From Escherichia coli O157:H7 (GTDB lineage: Bacteria; Pseudomonadota; Gammaproteobacteria; Enterobacterales; Enterobacteriaceae), in the NCBI RefSeq assembly GCF_013167455.1, contig NZ_CP038328.1: a stretch of 64,000 bases of DNA. The stretch is one strand, 5' to 3'. Positions within the stretch are counted from its first letter, which is position 1. Each line of letters starts with the position of its first letter. Position numbers: made by a program. This document shows, piece after piece, positions 43,401-46,400 of the stretch.

Positions 43401-46400
43401 CATCTCATTAAACCTGGGTTACTGGCTGACTTTAATATCCTGTAATAAAGAAAGGTTGCCCTGCTGGACAAAATTAAACGCCACTTTGTCGCCGGTTTTA
43501 ATTCCACTCATTTTCGTCTGCGGGGTGATGGTAAAGCGCATGGTCATCTCCGGCCAGTTCACGGCAGCAATCGGATCGTGATGGATGGTGATTTTTTTGC
43601 TTTCCAGATCAAAACCTTTTACCACGCCGGTGGCACTAATGACCTGTGGTTGTGCTTCGCTCATGGTTTCATGATGATGTTCGTTAGCCTGGGCATTAAA
43701 GCCAATAACGGTAAACAGACTGAACATTGCGACTTGCAGTGCTTTTTTCATTTATTTTCTCCTGGAGTTAAAAATTATTGCTGCCAACCGCCACCAAGTG
43801 CGGTATATAAAGAAATTTCGTTGACCTGACGGGCATAATTCAGGTCAAGTACGGTTTGTCGGGTTGCAAATAAAGAACGCTCGGCATCCAGCACTTCCAG
43901 ATAACTTACTGCGCCGTGCTGATATAATGCCCGCGCCCGTTGCAAAGTAATTTGCAGCGATGCCAGATAACGCTGCTGGGCGCTAATTTGATCGTTCAGG
44001 CTTTGACGTAATGCCAGCGCATCTGCCACTTCTTTAAAGGCGTTCTGGATTTTCTGTTCATAATTCACTACCGACTGCTGCTGGCGAATTTCGGCGATAT
44101 CCAGATTGGCCTGGTTGCGTCCGGCATTAAAAATGGGGATCTCAATTTTAGGAATAAAATTCCACATCCCGCTGCTGGCGTTAAATAATGACGACAGATC
44201 GCTGCTGGCGGTTGATATTCCGCTGGTCAGGCTGATAGACGGGAAAAATGCCGCGCGTGCAGCACCAATATTGGCATTAGCCGCCATTAACGCATGTTCA
44301 GCTTCCATAATATCCGGGCGCTGCAATAAGATTTGCGACGACAAGCCCGCCGGTAATTTAACGCTTTGCAGGCTGTCGCTGTTTACTGTCTGCGCTTGCG
44401 GCAGCTTGCCGTAGCTTCCCAGTAACAGTTGCAATGCATTATTCGCCTGCGCCAGTTCCCCCTGACGTTTAGCGATGTCGCTGCGGGTACTTTCAATCAC
44501 CCCGCGAGCCTGTTCCAGCGCCAGAACATTACTGCTACCTGTCAACAGTTGTTTTTCGACAAACGCATATGACTGCTGATAATTACGCAGCGTTTCTTCG
44601 GCTATTTGCAATTGCGCATACGCCAGCTGCTGATTGAAATAGCTTTGCGCGACATTAGAAACCAGCAGAATATGCACCGCGCGCTGAGCTTCCTCAGTGG
44701 CTAAATAATTTTGTCGCTCGGCTTCGCTCATGTTCTTTAAGCGCCCGAAAAAATCGAGGTCAAAGCTGGCGTTAAGGCCAGTAGAAAACTCCCGCGTCGT
44801 GGCTGAATCGCCTTTAAGATTGCCGCTCCAGCTGCCGCTGCCCTCACCATTGAGCTGTGGGTAGCGGTCGGCATCAGTCAGACGATATTGCGCCCGTGCC
44901 TCCTGCACTTTCAGCGTCGCCATGCGCAAATCCCGGTTATTCTCCAGCGCCTCGCTAATCAGCGTCTTCACCTGATTATCAACAAAAAAGGTGCGCCAGC
45001 CCGCGTTCTGATAGTTATCTGCTGCGTTAACCAGGCCGTTCTGGCTGAGTGAGAACTGCTGCGGTACGGGCATTGCCGGGCGCTGATAATCCGGTGCCAG
45101 TGAACAACCGGTTAGCGCAAGGGCCACACAAAATGGCAGAAGTTTACAAGGAGACATAGGCTCATAATTTCTGGTGATTTTATACCGCCAACTTTACTCG
45201 CCAGGCTCTGATTTTCCGGTGACAGGAAAATGACAAAATTGTCATTTTGCCAATAAGCGATTGCCATCTGATCCCGCTACTCTAGAATTGCCCGGGCAAC
45301 ATGCGGAGGAAATATGAAACTGTTGATTGTCGAAGATGAAAAGAAAACCGGAGAATACTTGACCAAAGGGTTAACCGAAGCCGGTTTTGTGGTCGATTTG
45401 GCCGACAACGGGCTGAATGGCTACCATCTGGCGATGACCGGAGATTATGACCTGATAATCCTCGATATTATGCTGCCGGACGTGAACGGCTGGGATATCG
45501 TGCGCATGTTGCGCTCCGCCAATAAAGGGATGCCGATTCTGTTGCTTACCGCGCTTGGCACCATTGAACATCGCGTCAAGGGGCTGGAGTTGGGGGCCGA
45601 TGACTATCTGGTGAAGCCGTTCGCGTTTGCTGAACTGCTGGCGCGGGTGCGCACTCTCCTGCGGCGCGGGGCGGCGGTGATTATCGAAAGTCAGTTTCAG
45701 GTTGCCGATTTGATGGTCGATCTCGTCAGCCGCAAAGTCACCCGCAGCGGCACGCGCATCACTCTGACCAGTAAAGAGTTTACTCTGCTGGAGTTTTTTC
45801 TCCGCCATCAGGGCGAAGTGCTGCCCCGCTCGCTTATCGCCTCGCAGGTATGGGACATGAATTTTGACAGCGACACTAACGCCATTGATGTGGCGGTGAA
45901 GCGGCTACGCGGCAAAATCGACAACGACTTTGAGCCGAAGCTGATTCAAACCGTGCGCGGCGTGGGTTACATGCTTGAGGTGCCGGATGGTCAGTAAGCC
46001 ATTTCAGCGCCCGTTTTCGCTGGCAACCCGCCTGACCTTTTTTATCAGCCTGGCCACCATCGCGGCGTTTTTCGCCTTTGCATGGATCATGATCCACTCA
46101 GTAAAAGTGCATTTTGCCGAGCAGGATATTAATGATTTAAAAGAGATTAGTGCCACCCTTGAACGCGTACTAAATCACCCTGACGAAACGCAAGCCCGAC
46201 GCTTAATGACGCTGGAAGATATCGTCAGTGGTTATTCCAATGTGTTGATTTCCCTGGCAGATAGCCACGGTAAAACGGTGTATCACTCCCCCGGTGCGCC
46301 TGATATCCGCGAGTTTGCGCGCGATGCCATACCCGATAAAGACGCGCGGGGCGGCGAGGTGTTTCTCCTCTCCGGCCCGACGATGATGATGCCAGGCCAC

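Follow-up and report, generated by a model that had tools for sequence, protein, structure and literature searches.

A 22-bp inverted repeat matching the published CusR box in the cusC-cusR divergent spacer of an Escherichia coli O157:H7 chromosome

The divergently transcribed genes cusC and cusR are separated by an intergenic spacer of 156 bp (45158..45313), as delimited by the ORF ends and by the RefSeq genes of an O157:H7 record with 100% identity, within the 64-kb window, i.e. the whole stretch of DNA analysed here. The spacer runs exactly from the ATG of cusC (45157, minus strand) to the ATG of cusR (45314, plus strand). A segment of 271 bases around the site described below is 100% identical to the corresponding region of E. 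coli O157:H7 PV15-279, where the flanking genes are annotated as cusC and cusR, and the same 271 bases find a match in 5335 of 5426 complete E. coli genomes. Genes of the annotated O157:H7 record follow the order pheP, cusA, cusB, cusF and cusC, then the divergent cusR and cusS, and then vgrG.

To the right of the spacer, cusR (45314..45997, plus strand) encodes a copper response regulator of the OmpR/PhoB family. The protein of 227 aa is full length, with an intact receiver and winged-helix domain, is 100% identical to CusR of K-12 and scores 507.9 bits against the equivalog model NF007346 (cut-off 420). It is followed by cusS (45987..47435, plus strand), whose start codon agrees with RefSeq and whose product is a Cu(I)/Ag(I) sensor histidine kinase of 482 aa (97.3% identical to K-12; NF007345, 983.5 bits). 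To the left, the minus strand carries cusC (43775..45157), coding for an outer-membrane channel of 460 aa with the lipoprotein signal MSPCKLLPFCVALALTGC, and the other efflux genes that are driven by the cusC promoter, namely cusF (43419-43751), cusB (42180-43403) and cusA (39031-42168). CusS, CusC, CusF, CusB and CusA are 97.3-99.5% identical to their counterparts in K-12 MG1655 without internal stops, and all six Cus proteins are full-length and exceed the respective curated NCBIfam cut-off. ORF map, RefSeq annotation and NCBIfam assignments thus agree that the spacer is the one between divergent cusRS and cusCFBA, which is where a CusR box is expected.

Within this spacer lies the 22-mer AAAATGACAAAATTGTCATTTT at 45227-45248, read directly from the sequence and embedded in the context ggtgacaggAAAATGACAAAATTGTCATTTTgccaat. 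A repeat finder resolved it into two arms of 10 nt each (45227-45236 and 45239-45248) with 100% complementarity and 2 nt between them, so that the CusR/HprR box (45227..45248) can be written as AAAATGACAA-AA-TTGTCATTTT. Pairing ends at the edges of the box, where positions 45226 and 45249 are G and G, and the stem of 10 pairs contains 2 G-C pairs. The initial annotation had described the element as a perfect 22-bp palindrome. An exact inverted repeat does occupy these positions, but the wording slightly overstates its symmetry: as the central AA (45237-45238) is not self-complementary, the 22-mer and its reverse complement disagree at 2 positions, and the box is therefore a 10+2+10 inverted repeat rather than a strict palindrome. 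In this respect it agrees with the published CusR box, in which the two central bases are written nn.

[quoted passage not shown] The comparison with this published box, which the initial annotation had proposed as a check on its assignment, revealed no mismatch: all 20 specified positions were matched at 45227-45248, and the box is identical to that of K-12 MG1655 at 22 of 22 positions. The pattern AAAATGACAANNTTGTCATTTT occurs once in the 64-kb window; in 100 shuffles that preserved the dinucleotides it did not appear at all, not even when as many as 3 mismatches were tolerated. The number of exact matches to 20 fixed bases expected in 64 kb is approx. 6e-8. Perfect inverted repeats with arms of at least 10 nt and a spacer of at most 4 nt are likewise rare, the window containing only 2 of them, compared with 0.23 per shuffle. 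The 40 nt centred on the box are present in 5333 of 5426 complete E. coli genomes, all with at least 95% identity; 3379 records are at least 99% identical over this segment, with 100% identity among the matches listed in that band.

Comparison with K-12 also showed that the surroundings of the box are preserved. The K-12 spacer also measures 156 bp, the two start codons are equally far from the box there, and the CusR proteins are identical. Alignment of the 271 nt revealed two differences, both outside the box. At 45226, G in the window corresponds to A in K-12; this position abuts the box and lies inside a PhoB site discussed below. At 45184, A corresponds to G in K-12, and this position falls into the core promoter or leader of cusC. 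We found nothing at odds with the CusR-operator explanation among the evidence weighed. The feature is the CusR operator of the textbooks, known before and showing almost no variation in E. coli. It is very probable that CusSR, the two-component system for copper and silver, uses 45227-45248 as its operator in the chromosomal cus locus of this E. coli, a close match to O157:H7 genomes. The further suggestion that the cus locus is regulatorily intact is borne out at the level of sequence: CusR and its box are identical to those of K-12, the six genes are intact, and every such test agrees.

In K-12, the spacer is the sole ChIP-chip peak of CusR, the single gSELEX peak of unphosphorylated CusR and the main gSELEX peak of HprR. 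The model established for K-12 holds that CusS activates CusR by phosphorylation and that CusR-P activates both PcusC and PcusR (PMC12589874; PMC10920338). As a point on the other side, one paper describes unphosphorylated CusR as a repressor of cusCFBA at this site. Carried over to the window on the strength of the K-12 identity, periplasmic Cu(I)/Ag(I) would activate the kinase CusS, which would in turn phosphorylate CusR. A CusR-P dimer would then bind the single box with one winged-helix domain per TGACAA half-site. Binding would switch on the efflux pump genes cusCFBA to the left and cusRS to the right, the latter amounting to positive autoregulation. Since site and regulator are identical to those of K-12, CusR probably binds and activates here as it does there, and induction of cusC and cusR by copper or silver via the box may be expected from the literature model. 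The PDB contains no CusR-DNA structure; the closest entry is the DNA-binding domain of PcoR alone.

On the cusR side, a promoter is predicted at 45261..45288 (plus strand), composed of a -35 box TTGCCA (45261-45266), a 16-nt spacer and a -10 box TAGAAT (45283-45288), which together scored 10/12 in a promoter scan. TAGAAT is kept in every cus and sil spacer compared, which cover Escherichia, Citrobacter, Kosakonia, Pseudocitrobacter, Budvicia and Providencia; the transcript of cusR is predicted to start near 45295. On the cusC side, the putative -10 box is TAAAGT (45191..45196, minus strand), identified as a TAnnnT element whose distance from the box is constant across the 14 related promoters compared below. 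It was missed by the consensus promoter scan, which is what one would expect of an activator-dependent promoter. An alternative -10 box, TATAAA (45184 to 45179), was considered; TAAAGT was preferred as the sole TAnnnT at the conserved distance in all 14 promoters. With this assignment, transcription of cusC would start near 45184, placing the centre of the box near -53.5. We infer these core-promoter positions because no published transcription start site of cusC or cusR was found in the copper-biosensor and copper-homeostasis literature searched.

Boxes of the same kind are known from several other systems. The box CATTACAAAATTGTAATG in the hiuH-hprR spacer (PMC9302797), which lies outside this window, has the core ACAAAATTGT, the inverted-repeat design and the regulator pair CusR/HprR in common with the cus box. 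It differs by one base per half-site (ATTACA instead of ATGACA) and has been reported as a lower-affinity target of HprR. The plasmid-borne sil/pco copper boxes of silC/silR, silE and pcoE, whose cognate regulators are SilR (87% identical to CusR) and PcoR, share the core TGACAAnnTTGTCA, a third TGAC half-site at 11 bp and a CTGTT motif at equal spacing on the effector side. They differ in the centre dinucleotide and in the outer A/T tracts, for instance ATAATGACAATGTTGTCATTTT in sil. The pcoE promoter carries TGACAAnnTTGTCAT and is reported to be under direct control of chromosomal CusR (PMC11195947). Across these paralogous silC/silR, pcoE and silE promoters the arms of the box are conserved and the two centre bases vary, being AA here, TG in silC/R, TT in pcoE and AG in Citrobacter. 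When the cus spacer was aligned with the silC-silR spacer of an IncHI2 plasmid, identity was concentrated in GGTGACAGGA, the arms of the box, GTAAAGT and TAGAAT, amid otherwise diverged sequence; the conserved GTAAAGT covers the -10 region of cusC and is retained in silC.

For a broader footprint, 100,044 species genomes were scanned for AATGACAANNTTGTCATTTT, yielding at least 120 loci, which we treat as footprint material and not as an estimate of distribution. Among the matches listed, approx. 15 loci adjoin cus- or pco-type genes or a gene for a CusR-like regulator. They come from Escherichia, Citrobacter, Kosakonia, Pseudocitrobacter, Budvicia, four Providencia species, Shimwellia, Moritella, Enterovibrio, a Methylococcaceae genome (L111) and a Puniceicoccaceae MAG (L082). 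In six other genera with the box, homologues of cusR and cusC flank it or homologues of pcoA are found, within approx. 130 bp. Most of the other matches listed stem from A/T-rich genomes of Bacteroidota, Firmicutes and candidate phyla, have no cus, sil or pco homologue nearby and are likely chance occurrences. Because these loci had been chosen for carrying the box, conservation is informative only outside of it. We oriented 14 box-anchored promoters with the effector gene to the left, consisting of 12 loci from the scan plus pcoE and silE; L111 and L082 were left out of this consensus. TGAC at 45220-45223 was conserved in 14 of 14 of these cus/sil/pco-type promoters at fixed spacing. Between this third half-site and the putative cusC -10 box, a CTGtT motif (45208..45212; CTGAT in the window) was at least 80% conserved, likewise at fixed spacing, and the TAnnnT -10 element followed on the effector side at a constant distance from the box. 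The distance from the box to the TAGAAT element of cusR varied from 21 to 34 nt, no third half-site was present 11 bp from the right arm, and nothing comparable was conserved on the cusR side. Conservation past the box is thus confined to the cusC side.

The third half-site is also part of a Pho-box-like direct repeat, TGTCATTTTCCTGTCACC (45218..45235, minus strand), which shares bases with the left arm of the CusR box; read on the plus strand, the third half-site is TGACA (45220-45224). It lies 11 bp from the TGACA of the left arm, which starts at 45231, so that the two make up a direct repeat of 11 bp. The element has the architecture of a Pho box, two TGTCA-type 7-bp direct repeats with an 11-bp periodicity and a 4-bp spacer, and like the Pho box consensus CTGTCATAWAWCTGTCAY it presents two TGTCA repeats 11 bp apart. 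In contrast to a plain Pho box, the repeat overlaps the operator of another regulator. Published data locate PhoB here. A PhoB ChIP-seq site, TGTCATTTTTCTGTCACC, with its peak at K-12 position 595521 (Fitzgerald et al., PMC10294691), maps to approx. 45236 in the window, and the same study reports a cusC expression of 208 in the wild type and 50 in the delta-phoB strain. ChIP-chip, EMSA and luciferase reporter evidence for control of cusR and cusC by PhoB was provided by Yang et al. (PMC3465305), whose distances from the PhoB motif to the start codons, -77.5 and -79.5, agree exactly with the window. The Pho box of the window is identical to the K-12 site TGTCATTTTTCTGTCACC at 17 of 18 positions, the sole difference being the polymorphism at 45226, through which the Pho-box spacer reads TTTC instead of TTTT and is less A/T-rich than in K-12. 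This polymorphism, in the PhoB part of the site, is common in E. coli. Within the pho regulon, the cus site ranks as weak and secondary; going by the results in K-12, PhoB may be expected to occupy it and to affect transcription in this strain too. HprR, a paralogue of CusR, recognizes the sequence bound by CusR, and its gSELEX signal in the cusRS/cusCFBA spacer is one high peak. The spacer is thus a published target of HprR and PhoB as well; the site is not exclusive to CusR, and the element is a composite target for three regulators of the OmpR/PhoB family.

How, then, is the inverted repeat best understood? That it arose by chance, or acts as an RNA hairpin or terminator without binding a protein, can practically be dismissed. 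The RNA from 45215 to 45262 does fold to -12.7 kcal/mol (z = -2.9), but the stem is A/T-rich and the loop is forced open to 4 nt; moreover, both inferred promoters lie downstream of the site, which is probably not transcribed. The fold is modest and lacks the G+C-rich stem-loop followed by a T run that would mark a terminator, and a terminator scan of 45000-45450 returned 0 terminator-like sites. The sequence of the arms is itself conserved across paralogues without compensatory changes in the stem, and an exact match to a motif of 20 bases specified beforehand is hardly expected by chance, given the expectation calculated above. A second reading complements the CusR-operator explanation without conflicting with it. 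Here the element would act mainly as a composite operator, at which HprR (peroxide/HOCl) acts on the inverted repeat and PhoB (phosphate starvation) on 45218-45235, so that cusC integrates three signals. We consider this somewhat more probable than not, as the gSELEX peak of HprR in the spacer and its target sequence in common with CusR, the PhoB ChIP-seq site with the drop of cusC expression in delta-phoB (PMC10294691), the ChIP-chip, EMSA and reporter data (PMC3465305), the 17 of 18 positions of the PhoB site retained in the window and the third half-site kept throughout the related promoters all point in this direction. Some observations temper it. The effect of PhoB on cusC is modest, approx. 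4-fold at low absolute expression, and the C that replaces T at 45226 in the A/T-rich Pho-box spacer could weaken PhoB binding. Furthermore, the third half-site is also found in the plasmid promoters of pcoE and silE and upstream of pcoA in Moritella and Enterovibrio. Since control by PhoB is undocumented in such pcoE/silE/pcoA-type promoters, PhoB alone may not explain why the half-site is conserved.

Regulators of the OmpR/PhoB family usually bind direct (tandem) repeats, as do PhoB, KdpE, PmrA/BasR and PhoP in their solved complexes, and an inverted repeat is unusual for the family. This leads to a further, rather doubtful reading, in which CusR activates cusC via the direct repeat TGACA(45220)-N6-TGACA(45231) and the inverted repeat serves the cusR side or stabilizes a higher-order complex. 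The head-to-tail geometry would be typical of the family; the third half-site sits in exact 11-bp phase and on the effector-gene side only; it is kept in all 14 CusR/SilR/PcoR-type promoters, even in those of pcoE and silE, which lack a divergently oriented gene for a regulator; and the box lies at a fixed distance from the effector -10 element and at 21-34 nt from that of cusR. Against this stand the published box, which is an inverted repeat, and the statement in PMC11195947 that CusR prefers a perfect palindrome. The hiuH-hprR box CATTACAAAATTGTAATG is a palindrome as well, the extra half-site has already been assigned to PhoB (PMC10294691), and the box of the Puniceicoccaceae MAG adjoins a CusR-like gene without a third half-site. 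The inverted repeat as the operator of CusSR, shared with HprR and overlapped by the PhoB site, remains our preferred interpretation.

In summary, the copper/silver efflux regulon of the O157:H7-like chromosome analysed here is of the standard type, appears functional and has the textbook operator. The promoters of cusC, silC, silE, pcoE and the pcoA type share a module that is longer than the published box, CTGtT-N7-TGACA-N6-TGACAA-nn-TTGTCA, with a -10 element at constant distance. A speculative extension, to which we assign a low probability, is that the third half-site is read as part of an 11-bp tandem repeat by the regulators of the CusR/SilR/PcoR family themselves and not by PhoB alone. 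If so, the functional CusR site would comprise three half-sites and not the published 22 bp, and the operator would combine direct with inverted repeats and thereby lend directionality to the divergent promoter pair. Such a longer cus/sil/pco promoter module could guide the design of promoters for copper biosensors.

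On the cusC side of the CusR box (45227-45248), and on that side only, conserved positions reach past the published box to cover 45206-45226 of the window, as revealed by comparison of 14 box-anchored cus/sil/pco-type promoters (12 loci among the genome-scan matches listed, together with pcoE and silE). This stretch comprises a third TGACA half-site at 45220-45224, 11 bp off the left arm of the box, and a CTGtT motif at 45208-45212. Both elements keep a fixed spacing across the 14 promoters, which represent about nine lineages. The published PhoB site (PMC10294691), a direct repeat at 45218-45235 on the minus strand, corresponds to the third half-site.

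In contrast to the divergent arrangement of cusC and cusR, the cus genes of Shimwellia pseudoproteus (locus L020) are all co-directional in the order cusRS, box, cusF-like gene, cusB and cusA, with the full 22-bp box at 5520-5541 downstream of cusRS and upstream of the cusF-like gene. Despite this layout, the third half-site is again located on the effector-gene side of the box. In Citrobacter koseri NCTC10786 (locus L114), the cusR homologue at 3091-3773 adjoins a perfect CusR box. It was matched in three separate frames or pieces, suggesting a frameshift or an assembly error in this genome.

Alignment of the window with K-12 MG1655 revealed only two differences in 271 nt, at positions 45226 and 45184. 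Position 45226 (G in the window, A in K-12) adjoins the CusR box and is part of the PhoB site, within its A/T-rich spacer. In the 40 nt around it, 3379 records are at least 99% identical to the window and 1955 are 95-99% identical, K-12 belonging to the latter group. Position 45184 (A in the window, G in K-12) either coincides with the inferred cusC start site or, if the hexamer is the -10 element, represents a CATAAA to TATAAA change.

The 156-bp spacer (45158-45313) also contains a 20-nt direct repeat, AGGCTCATAATTTCTGGTGA (45158-45177) and AGGCTCTGATTTTCCGGTGA (45203-45222), whose copies match at 16 of 20 positions, are 45 nt apart and fall within the leader and promoter of cusC. By a rough estimate, the chance probability of such a repeat in a spacer of this length is <0.02; it showed no obvious retention in sil. 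Inside the signal-peptide coding region of cusC, a half-site-like CAAAATGGCA at 45129-45138 shows 90% complementarity with the right-hand arm of the CusR box at a distance of 101 nt, probably by chance. Only one further perfect inverted repeat with arms of at least 10 nt and a spacer of up to 4 nt is present in the window (2396-2419, AATCGGGTGC-CGCA-GCACCCGATT). This G+C-rich element resembles a terminator or a hairpin of the REP type.

Between cusC and cusF, K-12 has an insertion of 126 nt, which may be an ERIC/IRU-type repeat. The window lacks it: at the 3' end of cusC and its junction with cusF (43752-43790), the gap between the two genes measures 23 nt. Moreover, a TGG to TGA change in K-12 shortens CusC by 3 aa, whereas CusC of the window retains 460 aa and ends in GGGWQQ.

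The region directly after cusS (48029-55289), where K-12 carries nfrB-nfrA, contains vgrG (633 aa) together with a DcrB-related and an Rhs gene. The Rhs gene of the window is an intact ORF of 1616 aa, whereas that of the otherwise near-identical O157:H7 PV15-279 record is annotated as frameshifted; window and record part from ~50462 onward. The vgrG/DcrB-related/Rhs block is a type VI effector island.
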